Sequence record: MN850584.1
Source: Escherichia phage arall
Direction: 5' to 3' (one strand)
DNA: 64,000 nt
Of this stretch, positions 360-50,101 are shown one piece after another. The position numbers and the translations under genes are program-made. Every line of letters begins with the position of its first letter. Position 1 is the first letter of the stretch. The notes below the pieces were generated by a model. That model saw only the letters and a program-made list of their open reading frames with translations. It did no database searches and was not told the origin of the DNA.

Positions 360-764
360 ATGTGGTCTGTTAAAATCAAATATAATGCGCAGTATTATGG
401 TGGAAAGCCTTACGAAGTTGTTATTTGTGACTGTATCTCTAAAGAAGTTGCACAGCTTTGTGGCGCTGGTGTTAGTGAAGCTATGAACAAAATGCATAAC
501 TCTACTGTGCGTTACCTGGATCAAGATATTCCAGAAGATGTAAATGACTATGCTTACGAAATTATTTACAGTGAAGGTAAAAAGCTCTCTATTGAAGATG
601 CACTTAAAGCACTACCTGCTATGTGCAACCCGACACCAGAAGCAGTTAAAGAGATTTTACCAGAATCCAACCCCGATGAATATGCCTCTATGGTTGCTTC
701 AGATATGTGGAATCTCTGTCGAGAAACTATGATTAAAAATCTGGTGGAAATGGCGCATGAGTAA
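360..764 (+). CDS. hypothetical early protein
   Basis: 134 aa ORF; RBS GGAGAG 6 nt upstream of ATG. Confidence 0.6.
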   Translation: MWSVKIKYNAQYYGGKPYEVVICDCISKEVAQLCGAGVSEAMNKMHNSTVRYLDQDIPEDVNDYAYEIIYSEGKKLSIEDALKALPAMCNPTPEAVKEILPESNPDEYASMVASDMWNLCRETMIKNLVEMAHE

Positions 765-975
765 AACGCACTTTATACATCCGTTTGATCCAAAGAACAA
801 GGCGGTTATACACCGCCGTTGGACTGAAACGCGCATTACAAAATGTCCTGTGCCAGCAGCACAGGAATATAACAAAACATATAAAGCAGAATTTGTGGAG
901 TACACCTTTGTAAATAACAAAGGGAAGGAGGTTTATGTTCCAGAATACTGCCTTTGGATAAAATGGGAGGAATAA
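757..975 (+). CDS. hypothetical protein
   Basis: 72 aa ORF, start overlaps upstream stop (operon-style coupling). Confidence 0.5.
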   Translation: MSKTHFIHPFDPKNKAVIHRRWTETRITKCPVPAAQEYNKTYKAEFVEYTFVNNKGKEVYVPEYCLWIKWEE

Positions 976-7305: not shown

Positions 7306-7310
7306 CACAT

Positions 7311-7334
7311 AAACCCGCTTCGGCGGGTTTTCTT
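7311..7334 (+). terminator. rho-independent terminator
   Basis: hairpin CCCGCTTCGGCGGG followed by TTTTCTTG. Confidence 0.6.
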
Positions 7335-11682: not shown

Positions 11683-11708
11683 CAAAAAACCCGCCGAAGC
11701 GGGTTTAT
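11683..11708. terminator. terminator hairpin
   Basis: CCCGCCGAAGCGGG hairpin flanked by A-run and T-rich run. Confidence 0.5.
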
Positions 11709-15254: not shown

Positions 15255-15917
15255 TTATTTAATATTCAATTTTGCACAAAGACGTTGTACCGCTTTGGCA
15301 TCGAACAAACTCCCACGAATAGTTCTCTTTCCTGATTCATTCAGATGTTTTGCAATCGTCATATATGGCGTTTTACAAGCTCTGTATGCAACTAAAGAAT
15401 CTTTTAAAGAAAGCGCAAACTCTTTTGAGCGTTTTGCTTCTTCCGTTTTCGTATAATCTGTTCTTTTGTATTTAGGGTTTGCTGCACCAAGAAGCGTTCC
15501 CTTCGCTTTTGCTACTTTAAGGCTCTTCTTAACACGATCAGATATTGCACGAGCCTCTTCTTCTGCCAGAACTGCTAAAATATTTATTATCATATTTTCA
15601 GCGGAGGGCATAGTTGCTATTCGTACATTAATCATCTCTAACAAGGTTGCAACAGAAGCTGTGTTACGTCCAAGACGGTCAACCTTAGCAACAACAAGTG
15701 TAGCACCTGTTTCTTTGCAAAGATTAACAGCTTTTACAAGCTCTCTACGTTGCTTCCAATCGCCTTTACCCGAATAAAACTCTGCAAAGCTACCTACAAT
15801 AGTATAATTTTCTTGTGAATCCAGGAAGCGTTGGATATCTGCTTCCTGTGATTCTATACCATACTGGTTGCCTTGTTGTTTCTTCTTAGAAAGTCGATGA
15901 TACAGTACAAACTTCAT
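15255..15917 (-). CDS. serine recombinase (resolvase/invertase family)
   Basis: 220 aa; N-terminal YHRLSKKKQ (catalytic Ser), LVVAKVDRLGRN, ISDRVKKSLKVAKAKG; C-terminal HTH-like region. Confidence 0.75.
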   Translation of the reverse strand: MKFVLYHRLSKKKQQGNQYGIESQEADIQRFLDSQENYTIVGSFAEFYSGKGDWKQRRELVKAVNLCKETGATLVVAKVDRLGRNTASVATLLEMINVRIATMPSAENMIINILAVLAEEEARAISDRVKKSLKVAKAKGTLLGAANPKYKRTDYTKTEEAKRSKEFALSLKDSLVAYRACKTPYMTIAKHLNESGKRTIRGSLFDAKAVQRLCAKLNIK

Positions 15918-15974
15918 AATACCCTCCTGTTCTGTTACAGGAAGTATGCACTACCTTAACGTTAAAGTCAACAG

Positions 15975-42822: not shown

Positions 42823-43191
42823 CTAATTAACGTCAGCACTATGATTGTTGAGAGTATAGGATACTCCATCGCCCAAGTCAACATGAATCTCAACTCCTAA
42901 CTGTCTTTCTAATGGTAAACGTTTTGAGAATTGATAATTACAAAGTTTGCAATCTAAGTCAAGCAACTCATGTTTGCTTAAGCCTGGAATGATAACTTTG
43001 CTTCCCACTGTCCACTCAATACCTTCAAAGTTATCTCTTCTTTTCAAAATGTCAAGTAAGAAGATGATTTGTTGCCATTCCGTAGACAAGTCTTCTTCAT
43101 AGAACGCAGAACAAAAAGTTTTATCATCGTAGAAAGCATACATTATGCTTCCATCTATTGTTTCACTTCTAACGTAGCGTGTGACCCTCAT
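42823..43191 (-). CDS. hypothetical protein (first gene of - block)
   Basis: 122 aa; RBS AGGAGGG upstream. Confidence 0.55.
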   Translation of the reverse strand: MRVTRYVRSETIDGSIMYAFYDDKTFCSAFYEEDLSTEWQQIIFLLDILKRRDNFEGIEWTVGSKVIIPGLSKHELLDLDCKLCNYQFSKRLPLERQLGVEIHVDLGDGVSYTLNNHSADVN

Positions 43192-43532
43192 TATTCCCTC
43201 CTATACGGCTCTGTAACGAGCTAATGGCCTTTAAGATATGCAATCACCTTACCTCACAGTAAAACTCGTTACAATCGTTTTTAGGAGGTTTAGGTTGTAC
43301 TTAAAAATAATCTAAAAAGGTGTTGACAAACGCAAAAAAGTATGCTACCCTAACCCCCGAAAAACGCCGAGCGCAGCGAGGGGGTGTTATCTAATCTTGT
43401 GATACATGATCTAACAGACAACTGAGTAGTCTACATATAGCACTATGTTATGTCTATAATACTAACATACATGCTCTATACTAACAATAGATTCTTTATT
43501 AATTTTATTATTAATTAAATAATAAATATCTA

Positions 43533-43561
43533 TTGACTTTAGATCTATCTGTATGTAGAGT
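43533..43561 (+). promoter_or_regulatory. sigma70-like promoter (TTGACT-N17-TAGAGT)
   Basis: -35/-10 hexamers with 17-nt spacer downstream of AT-rich UP-like region. Confidence 0.45.
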
Positions 43562-43600
43562 AGAAAACATAAAGTCCGAACTCAACTAAGGAGATAAACA

Positions 43601-44494
43601 ATGAAAGTTAGTATTCTACATGGTGTTGACTGTTATGTTACTGATGTAGACGTTAAAGTCTTTACATTCTCTGGTGGAGAACAACATGTTCAACTAGATA
43701 CGAATCTATCAGGTTTCAATCATGCTACAGACAGAATCTTACTCTCTTTAGAAGTAAGATCTGCTAAAGACTTGATGACTTTGGTTATGACTAAGAATGC
43801 ATTGGACAATATGCTATATCATAAACCATATTGTGTTGATTTGCTCATGTTGTATGTGCCATATGCACGACAAGACAGAGTGTGTGAACCTGGGGAAGCA
43901 TTCGGAGTTAAAGCATTTGCTTCTATAATTAATTCATTAAATTTCTCACGTGTTATCGTTGCTGATCCACATAGTGATGTTACTCCAGCGGTGTTTGACA
44001 GACTCTGTGTAATACCTCAAGAAGAGATTGCTTACGAAACTTTAAAGTGGAAGTTACGTATGGAGAATTTTGCTCTTGTTAGTCCTGATGGTGGTGCTCT
44101 TAAGAAAATATTTAAATTATCTAAGAAAATGTCTTTAGATGTGTTCTGTGCAGAGAAGGTTAGAGATACTGCAACAGGTGCTATTGTTCGTACAGACATT
44201 TCTGTACAGGATTTCAATAAGCGTAACCTGATGATCGTAGATGATATCTGTGACGGCGGTAGAACTTTTATTGAATTGGCTAAAGTGCTACGTGCTCGTA
44301 ACGCAGGTAAGATTGAGTTATATGTTACACACGGTATCTTTTCTAAAGGTCTTAAAGAGTTAAGTGAGCACTTTGACTGCATTCATTCTCTTAATGTGTG
44401 GGAAGATAACATCCAAGAAGATTCCGGTGTTCTTGTTAAGAATCAGTCAGATTTGCAACAACAAATTGTATCTCCATACGTGTGGAATTTTTAA
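43601..44494 (+). CDS. PRPP-synthetase-like phosphoribosyl pyrophosphokinase (candidate ADP-ribose pyrophosphokinase, Adps-like)
   Basis: 297 aa; VPYARQDR, VSPDGGALKK, IVDDICDGGRT motifs; RBS AAGGAGA. Confidence 0.8.
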   Translation: MKVSILHGVDCYVTDVDVKVFTFSGGEQHVQLDTNLSGFNHATDRILLSLEVRSAKDLMTLVMTKNALDNMLYHKPYCVDLLMLYVPYARQDRVCEPGEAFGVKAFASIINSLNFSRVIVADPHSDVTPAVFDRLCVIPQEEIAYETLKWKLRMENFALVSPDGGALKKIFKLSKKMSLDVFCAEKVRDTATGAIVRTDISVQDFNKRNLMIVDDICDGGRTFIELAKVLRARNAGKIELYVTHGIFSKGLKELSEHFDCIHSLNVWEDNIQEDSGVLVKNQSDLQQQIVSPYVWNF

Positions 44495-47152: not shown

Positions 47153-47238
47153 GCAAGTGTGGTGGAATTGGTGATACACATTGTGCTTAAAACGCAACGC
47201 TTAAATGCTTGAGGGTTCGAATCCCTCCACTTGCACCA
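47153..47238 (+). tRNA. tRNA-Leu (anticodon TAA)
   Basis: acceptor GCAAGTG/CACTTGC, anticodon loop CTTAAAA, long variable arm, T-loop TTCGAAT, CCA encoded. Confidence 0.75.
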
Positions 47239-47240
47239 AC

Positions 47241-47346
47241 GCCTAGTAGGGTATTTGGTAATTCCGAGGCCATCAAAGCCTGAAAAATATGTTAGACCGC
47301 TTTGTCTAACTAAATACGAAATATGGTTCGATTCCATAACTAGGCT
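47241..47346 (+). other. atypical over-long tRNA-like gene (106 nt)
   Basis: perfect 7-bp acceptor GCCTAGT/ACTAGGC and canonical T-arm TATGG-TTCGATT-CCATA, but about 30 nt too much between them, including a 7-bp hairpin GTTAGAC-CGCTTT-GTCTAAC. Confidence 0.35.
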
Positions 47347-47379
47347 TCAATTTAAATAGTAATTTTAGTAAAAAATATC

Positions 47380-47408
47380 TTGACATTTACTTAGTTTTTT
47401 GTTATAGT
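47380..47408 (+). promoter_or_regulatory. sigma70 consensus promoter (TTGACA-N17-TATAGT)
   Basis: near-consensus hexamers ending 12 nt upstream of tRNA-like gene at 47420. Confidence 0.55.
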
Positions 47409-47419
47409 CGTTATGAAAA

Positions 47420-47501
47420 CGGGGTGTATCTCACCTGACTTCTAATCAGGCGTTAACCGAGTAATTGGAGTATGCAGGTTCGAATCCTGTCACCCCGGCC
47501 A
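47420..47501 (+). other. atypical tRNA-like gene with anticodon hairpin TCT (Arg-type) and no recognisable D-arm
   Basis: perfect acceptor CGGGGTG/CACCCCG + CCA, T-arm GCAGG-TTCGAAT-CCTGT, anticodon arm CCTGA-CTTCTAA-TCAGG; only 7 nt (TATCTCA) where D-arm should be; 23-nt variable region with GNRA-capped stem. Confidence 0.4.
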
Positions 47502-47519
47502 AAAAGTTTTAAAAACTAC

Positions 47520-47549
47520 TTGACAAGCAAGATAGTTTTATGTTAGATT
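47520..47549 (+). promoter_or_regulatory. sigma70-like promoter (TTGACA-N17/18-TTAGAT)
   Basis: hexamers upstream of tRNA-Ser. Confidence 0.4.
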
Positions 47550-47564
47550 TAAAGTATGATAACT

Positions 47565-47654
47565 GGAAGGTAGGGCGCAGCGGTGCGCAACCAGGTTTGA
47601 ACCCTGGCCCATTGTAGCGATACGGTGATGGTTCGACTCCATTATCTTCCTCCA
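47565..47654 (+). tRNA. tRNA-Ser (anticodon TGA)
   Basis: acceptor GGAAGGT/ATCTTCC, anticodon arm CCAGG-TTTGAAC-CCTGG, long variable arm, T-loop TTCGACT, CCA. Confidence 0.7.
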
Positions 47655-47660
47655 AATTCA

Positions 47661-47825
47661 ATGAGTGATTTTATGAATTATAAAACTATTGGACAGGTTG
47701 TTACCGGAGTTAAGATTGTAAATAATAAAGTTGTTTATGAGTATTCTAATCTTCAACAATCTGAAGATGGTAAGAATATTCGTATGGTAAAAGCAGAACA
47801 AAAAGATTCCGGTTGTTTTGAATAA
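47661..47825 (+). CDS. small hypothetical protein inside tRNA cluster
   Basis: ORF track 47625..47825 trimmed to first ATG after tRNA-Ser 3' end; no clear RBS. Confidence 0.3.
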   Translation: MSDFMNYKTIGQVVTGVKIVNNKVVYEYSNLQQSEDGKNIRMVKAEQKDSGCFE

Positions 47826-47833
47826 TTAAGAAC

Positions 47834-47919
47834 GGTAGATTGGTGAAATGGTAGCCACAACAGTTTGCTAAACTGTCGTCGGAAACGGCGTGTAGGTTCA
47901 AGTCCTACATCTACCGCCA
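47834..47919 (+). tRNA. tRNA-Ser (anticodon GCT)
   Basis: acceptor GGTAGAT/ATCTACC, anticodon loop TTGCTAA, long variable arm, T-loop TTCAAGT, CCA. Confidence 0.7.
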
Positions 47920-48054
47920 AGTTATCTTTAATGTAGCTTGTAATCTTACTTTAGCAGAGTAAATCTTCGGCAAGTGGCGGTAACCACTTTACCGATACCC
48001 CAATACTTCATAGCTAAGTGCCGCAAACACTGGCTATTTTAAAGATAATTTTAT

Positions 48055-48129
48055 ACATCGTTAGCCAAGCGGTAAGGCACTTGACTTTTAATCAAGGGAG
48101 CGAAGGTTCGAATCCTTCACGATGTACCA
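48055..48129 (+). tRNA. tRNA-Lys (anticodon TTT)
   Basis: acceptor ACATCGT/ACGATGT, D-arm GCC-AAGCGGTAA-GGC, anticodon loop CTTTTAA, T-loop TTCGAAT, CCA. Confidence 0.75.
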
Positions 48130-48134
48130 AACAC

Positions 48135-48221
48135 GTAGGTATCGCATAGCGGCAATTGCTGGAGACTGTAAATCTCCTGCCCTTCTGGGCTTCGTTGGTT
48201 CGAGTCCAACTACCTGCACCA
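48135..48221 (+). tRNA. tRNA-Tyr (anticodon GTA)
   Basis: acceptor GTAGGTA/TACCTGC (U2.G71), anticodon arm GGAGA-CTGTAAA-TCTCC, long variable arm, T-loop TTCGAGT, CCA. Confidence 0.7.
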
Positions 48222-48228
48222 AATTAAA

Positions 48229-48313
48229 GATGGATTGGCCTAGTGGTTGGGCGACGGACTGTTAATCCGTGAACGAAAGTTCTAGCAAGGTTCAAATCCT
48301 TGATCCATCGCCA
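48229..48313 (+). tRNA. class-II (long variable arm) tRNA with anticodon GTT (Asn codons) in a Ser/Tyr-like body
   Basis: acceptor GATGGAT/ATCCATC, 3-bp D-stem GCC/GGC, anticodon arm ACGGA-CTGTTAA-TCCGT, 15-nt variable arm GAACGAAAGTTCTAG, T-loop TTCAAAT, CCA. Confidence 0.5.
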
Positions 48314-48320
48314 GAATTAT

Positions 48321-48397
48321 GGACTTGTAGAGTTAAGGTAAAACCCCAGTCGCCAAGAGGCTTCTGGAATTGCAGGTATCGAATCCTGTCGAGTCCA
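48321..48397 (+). pseudogene. degenerate tRNA-like element (possible tRNA pseudogene)
   Basis: acceptor-like GGACTTG/CGAGTCC and T-arm-like GCAGG-TATCGAAT-CCTGT (8-nt loop); no D-arm or anticodon arm found. Confidence 0.3.
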
Positions 48398-48403
48398 AGT
48401 ATT

Positions 48404-48478
48404 GCTCCTATCGTATAACGGCTATTACGGTTGCCTTGTAAGCAACTTATCAGGGTTCGAGTCCTTGTGGGAGCACCA
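48404..48478 (+). tRNA. tRNA-Thr (anticodon TGT)
   Basis: acceptor GCTCCTA/TGGGAGC, anticodon arm GTTGC-CTTGTAA-GCAAC, T-loop TTCGAGT, CCA. Confidence 0.75.
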
Positions 48479-48495
48479 ATTTTAACTCTAAAGGA

Positions 48496-48825
48496 GTGTA
48501 TGTGACAGAAAAAGAGTTAGAGAAATATTTTAATATCAATGTTTTCGATGGTTTTGATGATATTGAAGATGTTGAAAGATATTATGAAGTAGAGTTAGAT
48601 AAGGATAACATTGTAATTCTTTCTGCCACTTATGATTGTGCATATTATGAAGGTGAATCTCACGTTTATTTTTATGATATGAAAACATCTTTGTTTTATG
48701 AAGTACACGCATATCATTGTTCTTGTTATGGTTTAGAAGGTCAGTGGGAACCTGAAGAAATAGGTGATTTGGATTTTACTATTGCATATCTAAACAGACG
48801 TGGTGCATCTACTATTTTAAAATAA
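48496..48825 (+). CDS. hypothetical acidic protein inside tRNA cluster
   Basis: 109 aa; GTG start at RBS AAGGAG (alternative GTG 48502). Confidence 0.5.
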   Translation: MYVTEKELEKYFNINVFDGFDDIEDVERYYEVELDKDNIVILSATYDCAYYEGESHVYFYDMKTSLFYEVHAYHCSCYGLEGQWEPEEIGDLDFTIAYLNRRGASTILK

Positions 48826-48839
48826 ATATCAAAAGCCTC

Positions 48840-48869
48840 TTGACAAAGTGGCTAATAATATGTTAGAGT
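48840..48869 (+). promoter_or_regulatory. sigma70-like promoter (TTGACA-N18-TAGAGT)
   Basis: hexamers upstream of tRNA-Gly. Confidence 0.4.
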
Positions 48870-48880
48870 AATATTGTTAA

Positions 48881-48955
48881 GCGGGTATAGTGTTAATTGT
48901 AGCATATGAGGTTTCCACCCTCCAGGTGCAGGTTCAAGTCCTGTTACTCGCTCCA
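48881..48955 (+). tRNA. tRNA-Gly (anticodon TCC)
   Basis: acceptor GCGGGTA/TACTCGC, anticodon loop TTTCCAC, T-loop TTCAAGT, CCA. Confidence 0.65.
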
Positions 48956-49302
48956 AGATTATTTAAATGGAATCGCTAGAGAAAATTTCTCTTTTCGCTC
49001 ATGGTTTTCTCCTTCAAACTCTAGCGGTTCTTTTTAAGTGATTTTTAGTTTATTGGAGATTCACTGCCTTAGTATGAGCTAAAATCGAGGAGCCATCGAA
49101 CTGTCTGATTAATGATTTGCGAATCATTATAGTTTTAAGACCCCGGCAGTTTTATGGTGTACCTCTTGAATGTGAATGATGACGGGTTTATGGTTATCCT
49201 GGTCGTTAAATATCCAAAAACCTATGTTCCCCTTGATGGCTTGCGCAGGCAATGCCAATAAGTCCTGCATTTTCATTTAAAAGAGAATTTATAATGGAAA
49301 AA

Positions 49303-49380
49303 GATGAACTTAAGTATGCTAAGCCTCTGGCTTCTGCTGCACGAAAAGCAGTTCGTCACTTTGTGGTAACACTGAAGTAA
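49303..49380 (+). CDS. very small ORF (25 aa) in structured noncoding stretch
   Basis: ATG 9 nt after AAGAGAA; MEKDELKYAKPLASAARKAVRHFVVTLK; speculative. Confidence 0.2.
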   Translation, partial: DELKYAKPLASAARKAVRHFVVTLK

Positions 49381-49385
49381 TTTAT

Positions 49386-49460
49386 TGGAGATTAGCCTAG
49401 TGGGAAGGCAACGGCCTTTGAAGTCGTGATGACTAGGTTCGATTCCTAGATCTCCAGCCA
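49386..49460 (+). tRNA. tRNA-Gln (anticodon TTG)
   Basis: acceptor TGGAGAT/ATCTCCA (U1-A72), anticodon arm ACGGC-CTTTGAA-GTCGT, T-loop TTCGATT, CCA. Confidence 0.75.
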
Positions 49461-49467
49461 AGATTTA

Positions 49468-49543
49468 CAGTGCGTAGCGCAGTTGGTAGCGTGGGAGCTT
49501 TGGATGCTTCGGGTCGCAGGTTCGAGTCCTGCCGCACTGACCA
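49468..49543 (+). tRNA. tRNA-Pro (anticodon TGG)
   Basis: acceptor CAGTGCG/CGCACTG (C1-G72), anticodon loop TTTGGAT, T-loop TTCGAGT, CCA. Confidence 0.75.
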
Positions 49544-49548
49544 AATTT

Positions 49549-49623
49549 GCAGAGATAGCTGAGACGGATTAGTGCTACCCTGAAAAGGTAGAAAGGATGG
49601 ATCGTTACCATCTCTCTGCACCA
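49549..49623 (+). tRNA. tRNA-Phe (anticodon GAA), non-canonical T-loop ATCGTTA
   Basis: acceptor GCAGAGA/TCTCTGC, anticodon arm CTACC-CTGAAAA-GGTAG, T-stem GATGG/CCATC, CCA. Confidence 0.6.
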
Positions 49624-49700
49624 AATAACACCATCCAAGGAGTAGACTTGGTTAACTGTCAATAGCACATTGAGGCTTCTTACAGTGGTGTACTTATTAT

Positions 49701-49785
49701 GGCTAAGTGGTGGAATGGTATACACGATACGCTTAGAACGTATTGCCCCAAGGGATTGTGAGTTCGAGTCTCACCTTAGCTACCA
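49701..49785 (+). tRNA. tRNA-Leu (anticodon TAG)
   Basis: acceptor GGCTAAG/CTTAGCT, anticodon arm ATACG-CTTAGAA-CGTAT, long variable arm, T-loop TTCGAGT, CCA. Confidence 0.7.
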
Positions 49786-49800
49786 AATTATTACAGATTG

Positions 49801-49879
49801 TGCGGGATAGAGGAGTCTGGTCGTCCTCGCCAGTTTCATATGCTGGAGATCATCGGTTCAAATCCGATTCCCGCCTCCA
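49801..49879 (+). tRNA. tRNA-Met/Ile2 (anticodon CAT)
   Basis: acceptor TGCGGGA/TCCCGCC (1-72 mismatch), D-arm GAGG/CCTC, anticodon arm CCAGT-TTCATAT-GCTGG, T-loop TTCAAAT, CCA. Confidence 0.6.
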
Positions 49880-49956
49880 ATAAATACCTCCCTTCTGGTG
49901 TAATGATTAAATTGCATTGACACTTCAAGGAACTCATAGCCGGGTAGATTTAAAAG

Positions 49957-50020
49957 AGTATGGTACTCAATATGGCTCCAAACCATAGATCAAGGGGTTC
50001 GATTCCTCACCTTGCTGCCA
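49957..50020 (+). other. short (64 nt) tRNA-like gene with anticodon hairpin CCA (Trp-type), no D-arm
   Basis: anticodon arm TATGG-CTCCAAA-CCATA, T-arm AGGGG-TTCGATT-CCTCA, 3' CCTTGCT-G-CCA pairs with AGTATGG (6/7); only 7 nt (TACTCAA) in D-arm position. Confidence 0.35.
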
Positions 50021-50025
50021 ATTAT

Positions 50026-50101
50026 TGTGGTATCGTACAGATGGTTAGTACACTCGACCGATAATCGAGAAACAACGGTTCGACTCCGTTTACCACGACC
50101 A
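50026..50101 (+). tRNA. tRNA-Ile (anticodon GAT)
   Basis: acceptor TGTGGTA/TACCACG, D-arm GTAC/GTAC, anticodon arm CTCGA-CCGATAA-TCGAG (C33), T-loop TTCGACT, CCA. Confidence 0.65.

Follow-up and report, generated by a model that had tools for sequence, protein, structure and literature searches.

The DNA invertases Gin (phage Mu), Cin (phage P1), Hin and Pin are small, phage-encoded serine recombinases with a common catalytic fold, and are characterized by an HTH_7 DNA-binding domain, close mutual relatedness in sequence, a Fis-dependent recombinational enhancer in the 5′ portion of their gene and an invertible segment between inverted crossover sites, which usually adjoins the gene and occurs in populations in both orientations. 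Invertases of the Mpi type act on several distant promoter segments, each between short conserved inverted repeats. Strand exchange by serine recombinases is site-specific and proceeds via a phosphoserine intermediate. The likewise small resolvases of the Tn3, γδ and Sin type have an adjacent res site and a transposon or plasmid context, and Tn3-type resolvases autoregulate. Large serine recombinases such as Bxb1, PhiC31 and CcrB typically exceed 400 amino acids, use att sites and extend from the catalytic domain and helix E into a "Recombinase" domain, a zinc ribbon and a coiled coil. IS607-type transposases, which are mobile and multicopy, have an N-terminal MerR-like HTH followed by the catalytic domain. 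Phage P1 also encodes Cre, a recombinase with a single-copy site that cyclises terminally redundant DNA and resolves multimers. With respect to expression, the ribosome-binding sites (RBS) of gene e, gene 49 and I-TevI of phage T4 are sequestered in read-through RNA, and a promoter inside the hairpin yields a translatable mRNA.

A serine recombinase gene is located in the window, i.e. the whole 64,000-nucleotide stretch of Escherichia phage arall (MN850584.1) that was analysed (Table 1). The original prediction had placed the 220-aa ORF exactly. The gene call itself is not new: the ortholog Phi92_gp053 (YP_009012384.1) was annotated before as "DNA invertase" or "recombinase", the former label being used in NC_023693 and RefSeq. 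Labels in databases vary, "DNA invertase" and "methionine ABC transporter ATP-binding protein" being the extremes. Both motifs quoted originally are present, YHRLSKKKQ at aa 6–14, with Ser10 in the catalytic position, and LVVAKVDRLGRN at aa 74–85. The proposed identity as a small serine recombinase agrees with Pfam (PF00239 Resolvase, aa 4–141, E = 8.4e-22, 78 bits with a cutoff of 23), PHROG (125 "DNA invertase", E = 1e-31) and AlphaFold2 combined with Foldseek. By its catalytic domain and residue set, as read from sequence and structure model, the protein is a member of the serine recombinase superfamily (PF00239).

Table 1 Features of the recombinase locus (positions in the window) and plasmid-borne relatives of the protein
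Feature	Position	Strand	Basis or details
Serine recombinase gene, 220 aa	15255..15917	minus	ATG start; ORF list
Catalytic domain and helix E, aa 1–141	15495..15917	minus	Pfam, family alignment, AlphaFold2, Foldseek
C-terminal four-helix DNA-binding-type domain, aa 156–216	15270..15452	minus	AlphaFold2; PF07508
Own sigma70-type promoter (predicted)	15943..15971	minus	TTGACT 15966–15971, 17 nt, CATACT 15943–15948
RBS-sequestering stem-loop (predicted) CTTCCTGT-aacaga-ACAGGAGG	15923..15944	minus	Unique in window and 147-kb genome
Plasmid-borne relatives			e.g. Phaeobacter piscinae pP18_i WP_102906889; Synechococcus elongatus pIITB3_2 WP_338431979; Spirosoma rhododendri WP_169553723

In an alignment of 30 family members, Tyr6, Arg8 and Ser10 are kept in at least 90 % of the sequences and Asp80, Arg81, Arg84, Glu121 and Arg128 are invariant, this conservation of catalytic residues reaching down to 31 % identity. 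The AlphaFold2 model (pLDDT 87.7) comprises a catalytic domain of the resolvase type, the long helix E (108–138) and a C-terminal domain of four helices (156–170, 172–180, 185–194 and 207–216), in which aa ~185–216 form the predicted recognition helix. Significant Foldseek matches of the model were exclusively serine recombinases, including Bxb1 (best match, E = 1.7e-7, 250 columns), Sin, γδ and PhiC31. Foldseek was of no use for discerning affinity to small versus large recombinases, a distinction achieved with Pfam profiles applied to each member. The solved structures closest by sequence are those of Sin (2r0q, profile E = 1.4e-17) and Tn3 (1e-16), and Gin structures align over the catalytic domain alone (E ~ 1e-3). 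Residue conservation together with purifying selection (see below) suggests recombinase activity; judged from alignment and model, the protein is a catalytically competent small recombinase with a resolvase-type catalytic domain.

The C-terminal HTH originally proposed held true insofar as a helical DNA-binding-type domain is present; its type is that of large serine recombinases. Of the 30 family members, 17 match PF07508 (best E = 3.3e-7) and none matches HTH_7. Only the initial ~30–50 positions of PF07508 are matched (positions 18–48 by the tail of the phAPEC8 ortholog, E = 6e-4), the NCBIfam CcrB profile aligns over positions 10–225 of 542, and the region carries the conserved motif IA..LN..G..T..G..W....V.R. 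By these profile matches, the C-terminal domain is a truncated "Recombinase" domain of large serine recombinases and not an HTH of the Hin/Gin/resolvase kind, an assignment new here.

With Bxb1, PhiC31 and CcrB the phage protein shares the catalytic domain, helix E and the initial helices of the "Recombinase" domain, but at 220 aa it lacks the remainder of this domain as well as zinc ribbon and coiled coil, its model ending after the four-helix domain; the full architecture of a large serine recombinase is absent. Resolvases of the Tn3, γδ and Sin type resemble it in their small size and provide the best structure-sequence matches, but the phage gene has neither an adjacent res site nor a transposase, is not set in a transposon or plasmid context and encodes a different DNA-binding domain. 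IS607-type transposases differ by their reversed domain order, and the phage gene is single-copy and positionally fixed in each genus. The nearest non-phage relatives, annotated as "recombinase family proteins" and belonging to the same subfamily, are plasmid-borne (Table 1), share 35–36 % identity over the full length (~215–235 aa) and likewise combine the catalytic domain with an HTH tail of the large serine recombinase type (IA..LN..G..T..G.W). Their genes, on plasmids of 6.4 and 7.3 kb, adjoin rep, parA and RHH genes, and from this context, in which they are the lone recombinases, a role in plasmid maintenance by resolution-type exchange is expected. Large dyads are located directly upstream of them, as expected for a res-like site acting in cis, whereas the phage gene has no site of this kind.

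The promoter upstream of the recombinase gene, which has a TG two bases upstream of the −10 element, is not above chance by consensus scan alone; TTGACA/T-N17-(−10) recurs, however, at constant distance from the ATG in 7–8 lineages in which other non-coding DNA has diverged. Its −10 element overlaps the 5′ arm (15937–15944) of a stem-loop, this arm being located upstream of the predicted transcription start (~15936), and the Shine-Dalgarno sequence (15923–15928) forms the 3′ arm. Folding predictions yield an 8-bp stem over AGGAGG in read-through RNA (z-scores −2.2 to −4.8) and no such stem in promoter-initiated RNA (−0.35). An equivalent stem, of different sequence and with G·U pairs, occurs in 6 other lineages; RNAalifold revealed compensatory double changes in five of the six consensus pairs, and in a shuffle control, which was run next to a slide control, the observed pairing or covariation was reached in 0 of 500 cases. 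Phages of the phAPEC8 type are devoid of the hairpin, and the minimum-energy fold of FKP3 is a different hairpin. Since the pairing is kept without the sequence, G·U pairs occur and the Shine-Dalgarno sequence serves as 3′ arm, the upstream dyad is interpreted as an RNA hairpin, and CTTCCTGT-N6-ACAGGAGG, the initial 9 nt of which we take to resemble a gix half-site, was rejected as recombination site.

The gene with its sigma70-type promoter directly upstream would accordingly constitute an autonomous cassette, the −10-to-start region of the promoter acting as 5′ arm and the Shine-Dalgarno sequence as 3′ arm of the hairpin. Read-through transcripts of the operon would hide the RBS, and a short transcript starting inside the hairpin would be the sole translatable one, such that the enzyme would be kept scarce and bound to (early-type) transcription by the host RNA polymerase. 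Such a promoter-in-hairpin translational gate, new here and modelled on 7 sequences and a predicted transcription start, is probable in view of the covariation. By analogy with T4 gene e, gene 49 and I-TevI, the RBS would be hidden in read-through RNA; the internal promoters of T4 are late, whereas that of the recombinase gene is of the sigma70 type with a predicted start.

Inspection of the surroundings bore out the original statement that no att site, large C-terminal domain or invertible segment is found nearby, and the genome search for inverted and res-like sites proposed along with it retrieved no cognate site by sequence analysis. Genome-wide, significant inverted repeats were all terminator hairpins and short pairs occurred at chance level. 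A 23-nt perfect inverted pair (7309–7331/11686–11708) was discarded because each of its arms is a terminator hairpin, and the 4.4 kb they enclose were never found inverted in ~55 genomes. Inversion isomers were absent from 75 kb (25 kb surrounding the gene together with tail-fibre module and early region) in these ~55 independent genomes, and the window is collinear with phage inny over 64 kb. No multi-subsite res of ~100 bp adjoins the gene, its 57-bp upstream spacer being filled by promoter and RBS hairpin, and neither a transposase partner nor a plasmid state was detected. The divergent intergenic region at 43185–43610 of the window contained nothing notable.

Sites of the lox kind were also considered, the genome ends of phi92 being 343-bp direct terminal repeats. 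P1 Cre/loxP can serve as a functional analogy only: Cre is a tyrosine recombinase and P1 a temperate phage with a plasmid prophage, whereas the phi92-type terminal repeat has no lox-like site. Islands within the repeat that are common to the genera represent only promoter elements, the boundary of the repeat and a Fur box close to consensus, and no crossover site for a Cre/lox-like cyclisation was among them. A perfect 22-bp palindrome at position 138007 of inny was rejected as a lox-like site, as phi92 has a different centre and Phapecoctavirus has lost the palindrome by deletion. It resides, in single copy, within a ~56-bp dyad at a distance of ~280 bp from the terminal repeat, on its outer side, where it is the tip of a structured element whose stems show compensatory changes and for which no match was found in Rfam.

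The absence of both an inverted site pair and an adjacent res-like site from the genome points to a single-copy site used in trans, and the genome may harbour a short target of this kind. The recombinase would then work in trans, each genome unit offering a single short site, and genome copies of the replicating pool would undergo exchange of the deletion or resolution type or between molecules, with concatemers, circular multimers or co-infecting genomes as substrates. Resolution or exchange at a single-copy site is a low-confidence best guess, weakly favoured since the nearest non-phage relatives reside in plasmid maintenance modules. The original suggestion that the enzyme resolves concatemers or multimers is thereby kept as a possibility, but the cognate site it implies was not found. 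The whole explanation, consisting of a competent resident enzyme, its gate and resolution, is put forward tentatively. With fixed direct terminal repeats and packaging from concatemers, the phages have no obvious need for multimer resolution.

Alternatively, the enzyme could target non-phage DNA (host chromosome, prophages, plasmids or competing phages), rearranging or breaking it early in infection. In agreement with this, the phage genome shows no detectable site, takeover or competition would suit a gene with an early-type host promoter and tightly controlled dosage, and the lytic phages that carry the family infect widely different hosts, the DNA-binding domains having diverged strongly; relatives also occur in Vibrio/Shewanella phages. 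Positive evidence is missing, however, the nearest relatives are enzymes of the plasmid housekeeping type, and we know of no precedent for a serine recombinase rearranging or breaking host or competitor DNA in infection, rendering this alternative unlikely. That the family represents a clade of minimal serine recombinases specific to large, strictly lytic phages, with a long-kept, gated early function and a target in trans, be it a single-copy site for cyclising or exchanging genome copies of terminal-repeat phages or host or competitor DNA, is a rather doubtful reading.

The window derives from a phi92-like E. coli myovirus (Justusliebigvirus) and is 98.9–99.9 % identical to Justusliebigvirus phages; the virulent-phage context assumed at the outset was corroborated, such DNA being found in none of 5,426 complete E. 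coli genomes and their plasmids. The recombinase protein is at least 99 % identical (100 % in most) throughout the ~55 Justusliebigvirus records, and an ortholog of 57 % identity is fixed in Phapecoctavirus (at least 63 records, counted as those covering at least 80 % of the phAPEC8-type locus). Ortholog divergence between the genera (57.8 %) is within the range of backbone neighbours (33–85 %). The gene is single-copy and constant in position within each genus, and its locus differs between the genera, which have only the ORF and its promoter in common; phAPEC8 has a 45-bp spacer containing a terminator at its empty site. Among the lineages compared, no common conserved neighbour qualified as partner or accessory factor. 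Base composition equals that of neighbouring genes, the cassette has neither terminal nor flanking repeats, pN/pS amounts to 0.22 (versus FKP3), and 3 synonymous and 0 non-synonymous changes separate the gene from that of phi92. Fixation in both genera, purifying selection and lack of flanking repeats argue against a relic; by comparison of these genomes, the gene belongs to the resident core of the phi92-like and phAPEC8-like lytic phages and evolves under purifying selection, a conclusion new here.

A gene without a role for the phage, selfish or relict in nature and derived from a moron or a former mobile element, would account for a promoter-ORF cassette at different positions in two genera with clean "empty sites", and for its having been overlooked in several genome papers without consequence. 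Such an origin, of which the original prediction had envisaged a mobile-element relic, is very unlikely in the face of invariant catalytic residues, purifying selection, native composition and missing terminal repeats. Moreover, the gene is present in every record seen of both genera with one relocation over ~40 % protein divergence, and its dedicated translational control element is conserved. The sole broken-looking copy (Schickermooser) displays 23 clustered 1-nt deletions, which also affect the upstream gene; as these look like sequencing error, pseudogenisation as a sign of dispensability was rejected.

A main function as DNA-binding regulator, e.g. an autorepressor that has lost recombination, would match the autoregulation of Tn3-type resolvases and the dyads over the promoter, with arms of at least 10 nt in 3 of 8 lineages (background 3.9 %). 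It is scarcely probable, given that the full catalytic set (R8, S10, D80, R81, R84, E121 and R128) is conserved across the family and that the dyads covary with the Shine-Dalgarno sequence and are G·U-compatible, indicative of RNA pairing rather than protein-DNA recognition.

The inversion switch elsewhere that the original prediction had considered, i.e. an invertase of the Gin/Cin/Hin or Mpi type flipping a segment or promoters at another place in the phage genome, is largely refuted and highly improbable. The PHROG assignment and the several host-range tail fibres of phi92-type phages are compatible with it, as is a full-length match to the Mpi family NF009949 of NCBIfam, which is weak (E = 3e-8) and with 33.5 bits far under the cutoff of 272, placing the protein outside this family. 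Like Gin, Cin, Hin and Pin, the protein is small, phage-encoded and of the common catalytic fold, but it has no HTH_7 and aligns with Gin over the catalytic domain only, and an adjacent invertible segment, inverted sites and isomers are all absent. Besides the inverted repeats attributable to terminators or chance, the ~55 genomes without opposite-strand segments and the collinearity with inny, the Mpi inverted-repeat motif, presumably ARACGTWCGT, occurs twice (1.1 expected), the two copies sharing one strand at a distance of 19 kb. The label "DNA invertase" does not fit the recombinase.

Least plausible is an integrase, or a function in maintaining a plasmid prophage during a lysogenic or carrier state that has stayed hidden. 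The DNA-binding domain and the best profile matches do stem from the large serine recombinase lineage, but the parts carrying att-site logic (most of the recombinase domain, zinc ribbon and coiled coil) are absent, and the E. coli genomes searched contain no phi92-like DNA of the kind that attP/attB integration would leave as a prophage.

Phages of the phi92 and phAPEC8 type are promoted for therapy, the routine safety criteria of which include "no recombinase or integrase gene", and published genome reports on them deny any recombinase or guess its role. A literature search retrieved no data on function, transcriptomics or essentiality for these phages. Safety assessment is helped by the findings that the gene does not encode an integrase, that there is no prophage state and that the invertase label is unsupported. 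A compact recombinase of 220 aa with a DNA-binding module of the large serine recombinase type may also be of interest to tool builders once its site is known. As far as can be told from sequence, a strictly lytic E. coli phage appears to possess an active, tightly regulated DNA-rearranging enzyme with nothing visible to rearrange. A conserved, selected and gated recombinase without lysogeny or invertible DNA poses a small biological puzzle, and a trans-acting role, if true, would represent an undescribed use of site-specific recombination in lytic infection.

The predicted 220-aa open reading frame of a small serine recombinase held in its coordinates, start codon and length, and its motifs YHRLSKKKQ (aa 6-14) and LVVAKVDRLGRN (aa 74-85) were both found. 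The assignment to the resolvase/invertase type was likewise borne out: PF00239 (Resolvase) spans aa 4-141 (E=8.4e-22, far above the curated Pfam cutoff), PHROG 125 matches with E=1e-31, and significant matches of the structural model in a Foldseek search of the PDB are serine recombinases only. Among solved structures, the single sequence weakly retrieves Sin, Tn3, gamma-delta and Gin (E=1e-5 to 1e-3), and the family profile reaches E=1e-17. Modelling with AlphaFold2 on a 30-sequence alignment gave a confident structure (mean pLDDT 87.7): a resolvase catalytic domain with the long helix E (108-138) is predicted, and a disordered linker leads to a C-terminal domain of four helices (156-216). 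Since the catalytic residues are conserved in an alignment of 30 family members with identities down to 31 % (Asp80, Arg81, Arg84, Glu121 and Arg128 invariant; Tyr6, Arg8 and Ser10 in at least 90 %), the catalytic apparatus appears intact across the family.

Features of the recombinase locus, the tRNA region and the genome ends
Feature	Position	Strand	Details
Recombinase ORF	window 15255-15917	-	ATG start, 220 aa
Predicted promoter	57-bp spacer upstream of recombinase gene		TTGACT-17 nt-CATACT; sequence scan
Dyad	57-bp spacer, downstream of promoter		CTTCCTGT-aacaga-ACAGGAGG; unique in genome
Cluster of 14 tRNA genes	window 47153-50098		
Non-coding element, ~170 nt	inny (MN850601) 137860-138120 (inny piece L004:37860-38120); phi92 L011:2225-2480; ABPW7 L017:880-1140		
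Repeat boundary common to both genera			TCGCGTTA/AGCAC (slash, boundary); genus comparison

None of the 30 members matches HTH_7, the DNA-binding domain of Hin, Gin and resolvases, and 17 match PF07508 (best E=3.3e-7), the domain named 'Recombinase' that belongs to large serine recombinases; when the tail of the phAPEC8 ortholog is searched on its own, it aligns with PF07508 positions 18-48. In NCBIfam the CcrB model aligns best (positions 10-225 of 542), followed by Mpi and YneB, all three far below their own cutoffs. Because of the PF07508 and CcrB matches and the lack of HTH_7, the protein resembles a large serine recombinase cut off after its initial ~220 residues: the catalytic domain and helix E are there, as is the first helical part of the recombinase domain, whereas the remainder of the latter is missing, together with zinc ribbon and coiled coil. 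In contrast to Hin, Gin and resolvases, its C-terminal domain is not HTH_7. The phi92 ortholog Phi92_gp053 (YP_009012384.1) is labelled 'DNA invertase' in RefSeq, which the architecture, as read from sequence, does not support; labels in other records are recombinase, resolvase or hypothetical protein, and in several Phapecoctavirus records 'methionine ABC transporter ATP-binding protein'. Since Phi92_gp053 was already annotated, the gene call is not new; the finding is real and the gene identity largely ordinary. New are the finer family placement, a proposed translational gate, and results that speak against the database label as well as two of the three roles offered in the original prediction. 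Two genome papers on the sister genus Phapecoctavirus state that a recombinase is absent; the searchable literature gives remarks only, and no experiments, transcriptomes or essentiality screens on the recombinase were found in it.

About 55 records of the genus Justusliebigvirus (phi92-like E. coli myoviruses, subfamily Stephanstirmvirinae) match the locus at 98.6-99.9 % identity, with phage inny closest. Across all of these the protein is at least 99 % identical (100 % in most); the Phapecoctavirus (phAPEC8-like) ortholog shares 57 %, and 63 records cover at least 80 % of its locus. Identities of relatives amount to 78 % in Klebsiella phage FKP3, 44-51 % in other Klebsiella phages and 25-35 % in phages of Vibrio, Shewanella, Cellulophaga and others. 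Among 5.8 billion proteins 83 relatives were detected, all of 200-290 aa and many on 135-157-kb contigs. The three relatives inspected all reside in phage contexts, two among auxiliary genes of large phages (dTDP-sugar genes, NAMPT/PRPP, rIIB, ligase, UvrD) and one adjoining a P22-type portal gene; no neighbour gene is common to the three. Differences to phi92 are synonymous (3) and never non-synonymous (0), pN/pS to FKP3 is ~0.22, and GC, GC3 and trinucleotide composition equal those of the neighbours. Judged from its sequence, the recombinase is intact, under selection, equipped with a DNA-binding module of the large-serine-recombinase type and predicted to be active; both lytic phage genera carry it as a resident core gene. 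Records named as Campylobacter, Acinetobacter, Serratia, Salmonella and Pseudomonas phages share 97-99 % identity with E. coli Justusliebigvirus or Phapecoctavirus genomes, which makes their host labels doubtful.

At the locus, the two genera share only the ORF and its promoter. The backbone around it is unchanged in phAPEC8 (phosphatase, 0087, 0088, 0089 / 0090, 0091, methyltransferase, HslV and PhoH); there, the homologs of phi92 gp052 and gp054 are direct neighbours, with only a 45-bp spacer, a terminator hairpin, between them. In phAPEC8 the recombinase comes after phAPEC8_0048; the homolog of this gene, window 763-966, is followed by no recombinase and marks a reciprocal 'empty site' of the phi92 group. 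In view of these reciprocal empty sites, a cassette of promoter and ORF has shifted position once. The suggested mobile-element relic is at odds with cassette ends devoid of direct or inverted repeats, a divergence (57.8 %) within the range of backbone proteins (33-85 %, median ~63 %) and a position fixed within each genus; the recombinase reads as a relocated resident gene, neither decaying nor an actively mobile element. The product of window 763-966 has ~70 aa, yet is named 'putative ABC transporter ATP-binding protein' in some records. In phage Schickermooser (NC_048196, L008:2100-3100), 23 single-base deletions cluster within ~400 bp of an otherwise clean locus; as they are clustered and extend from the 5' half of the recombinase into the upstream gene, they probably represent a local sequencing or assembly artefact and not a pseudogene.

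Full-length relatives of equal size and with the same C-terminal motif (35-36 % identity) were found in a plasmid collection on plasmids of diverse bacteria, including 6.4-kb Synechococcus and 7.3-kb Phaeobacter plasmids, on which rep, parA and RHH genes surround the gene. Large dyads are located directly upstream of these copies, e.g. CTTGTAACACCCTCAA-N32-TTGAGGGTGTTACAAG, ending 5 nt before the ATG, a layout expected of a multimer-resolution system; such a role is suggested by context. By analogy with the plasmid relatives, we tentatively propose that the phage recombinase may act in trans on a short single-copy site in phage DNA, performing resolution-type or intermolecular exchange between genome copies. 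No adjacent site, inverted-site pair in the genome, isomers or prophage state was found for it. A target on host or competitor DNA is a rather doubtful alternative; a functionless selfish gene is improbable, a purely regulatory DNA-binding role more improbable still, and the remaining probability falls to something else.

Inversion elsewhere in the genome is yet harder to credit, and the invertase reading is very unlikely. The complete inny genome (147,483 bp) was assembled and self-compared: its significant inverted repeats, like those of the window, are all GC-rich terminator-type hairpins, exact inverted pairs of at least 13 nt spaced 60-6000 nt are at chance level (26 versus 18-32 in shuffled genomes), and an Mpi-type motif occurs twice (1.1 expected). 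Among ~55 independently assembled, near-identical genomes, an active segment would be expected in both orientations. In these, three 25-kb stretches (the surroundings of the gene, the tail/tail-fibre module and the early region) are collinear and without inversion isomers, the all-genome scan covering inny outside 25-60 kb and 85-122 kb; at least two matching places occur only where a match abuts the record end. These repeats and the lack of isomers argue against the inversion switch offered earlier. Unlike in other records, the match of phage cardinal (PQ567651.1) to inny 60-85 kb (tail module) breaks ~1.7 kb from the record end, which may be due to an insertion, rearrangement or assembly problem. 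The perfect 23-nt inverted pair at window 7309-7331 and 11686-11708 (ATAAACCCGCTTCGGCGGGTTTT and its complement), enclosing a 4.4-kb block with Sir2-like and cytosine methyltransferase genes, was rejected as a switch, since its arms are terminator hairpins and the block is never inverted in ~55 genomes. Outside the window, an 18-nt inverted pair at inny 126748-126765 and 130947-130964 contains the promoter-like motif TTGACAAG and encloses 4.2 kb of the early region with its sole minus-strand gene, inny_195; inversion was seen in no genome compared. Integration is the least credible role, as no chromosome or plasmid of 5,426 complete E. coli genomes matches the 5.5-kb locus.

The window is collinear with inny over 64 kb. 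Because window 47943-49061 is 92.5 % identical to inny versus ~99 % elsewhere, the tRNA region appears to be a local variation hotspot. Outside the window, the phi92 annotation gives direct terminal repeats of 343 bp, which correspond to inny 138304-138647, where many independent records are linearised exactly. A Cre/lox-like site in this repeat for cyclisation of the injected DNA was rejected, as the islands common to the two genera consist of a near-consensus Fur box, early promoter elements and the repeat boundary; so was a nearby 22-bp palindrome, which lies outside the repeat, differs at its centre in phi92 and is absent from Phapecoctavirus. This palindrome is the tip of the ~170-nt element, 100-300 bp left of the repeat and 79 % conserved between the genera, with at least two compensatory stems (GCCTATG..CATAGGC versus CGCTATG..CATAGCG; AACGCA..TGCGTT versus AAGCCA..TGGCTT). 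It matches no Rfam family and looks like a structured RNA or ssDNA element, perhaps serving packaging or acting as an origin or sRNA. Several near-consensus Fur boxes (e.g. AAATGATAATCATTATC and TGATAAT-T-ATTCTCA) were identified at inny 137430-138600 (L004:37430-38600), two copies inside the repeat; they also occur in ABPW7 (L017/L018), one is conserved between genera, and they suggest iron-responsive host control of early/terminal-region promoters.

The dyad upstream of the recombinase gene was discarded as a recombination site, since its pairing with the Shine-Dalgarno is kept across lineages while sequences change. In an alignment of upstream regions from seven lineages (protein identity 44-88 %), all seven retain a TTGACA/T-N17-(-10) promoter at equal distance from the ATG and a pyrimidine-rich stretch directly after the -10 that pairs with the Shine-Dalgarno, with differing sequences and, in some lineages, G.U pairs (e.g. 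TCCTGT/ACAGGA, CTCTTCT/AGGAGGG, CTCCTCT/AGAGGAG, CTCCTCTT/AAGAGGAG, ACACTTCT/AGGAGTGT). RNAalifold yields a 6-bp consensus stem with 5 pairs changed on both sides; stem pairing is 85.7 % versus 74.5 % in shuffles (slid registers 48-71 %) and covariation scores 0.52 versus 0.31, neither value being reached in any of 500 shuffles. In the predicted fold of the window's read-through RNA an 8-bp stem covers AGGAGG, and RNA begun ~7 nt downstream of the -10 is without the 5' arm and stays unstructured (-4.5 kcal/mol, z=-0.35). In four other lineages z is -2.6 to -4.8, and the minimum-energy fold of FKP3 uses an alternative hairpin. In the two Vibrio-type members the loop contains the -10 and the promoter spacer contains the 5' arm, apparently following the same gating logic; phAPEC8-type phages, where the gene belongs to a different transcription unit, have no hairpin (z=+0.4). 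The most economical reading of these predicted folds is a translational gate: read-through transcripts from upstream genes would be untranslatable, their ribosome-binding site hidden in the hairpin, and the transcript from the gene's own sigma70-type promoter (predicted start) would be the only translatable one. That this sequestration confines expression to the own promoter is reasonably probable. In this gating of read-through transcripts the gene would resemble T4 genes e and 49 and I-TevI, which use the same device. The predicted gate would imply tight limits on both the amount and the timing of the recombinase, which is usual for enzymes of site-specific recombination.
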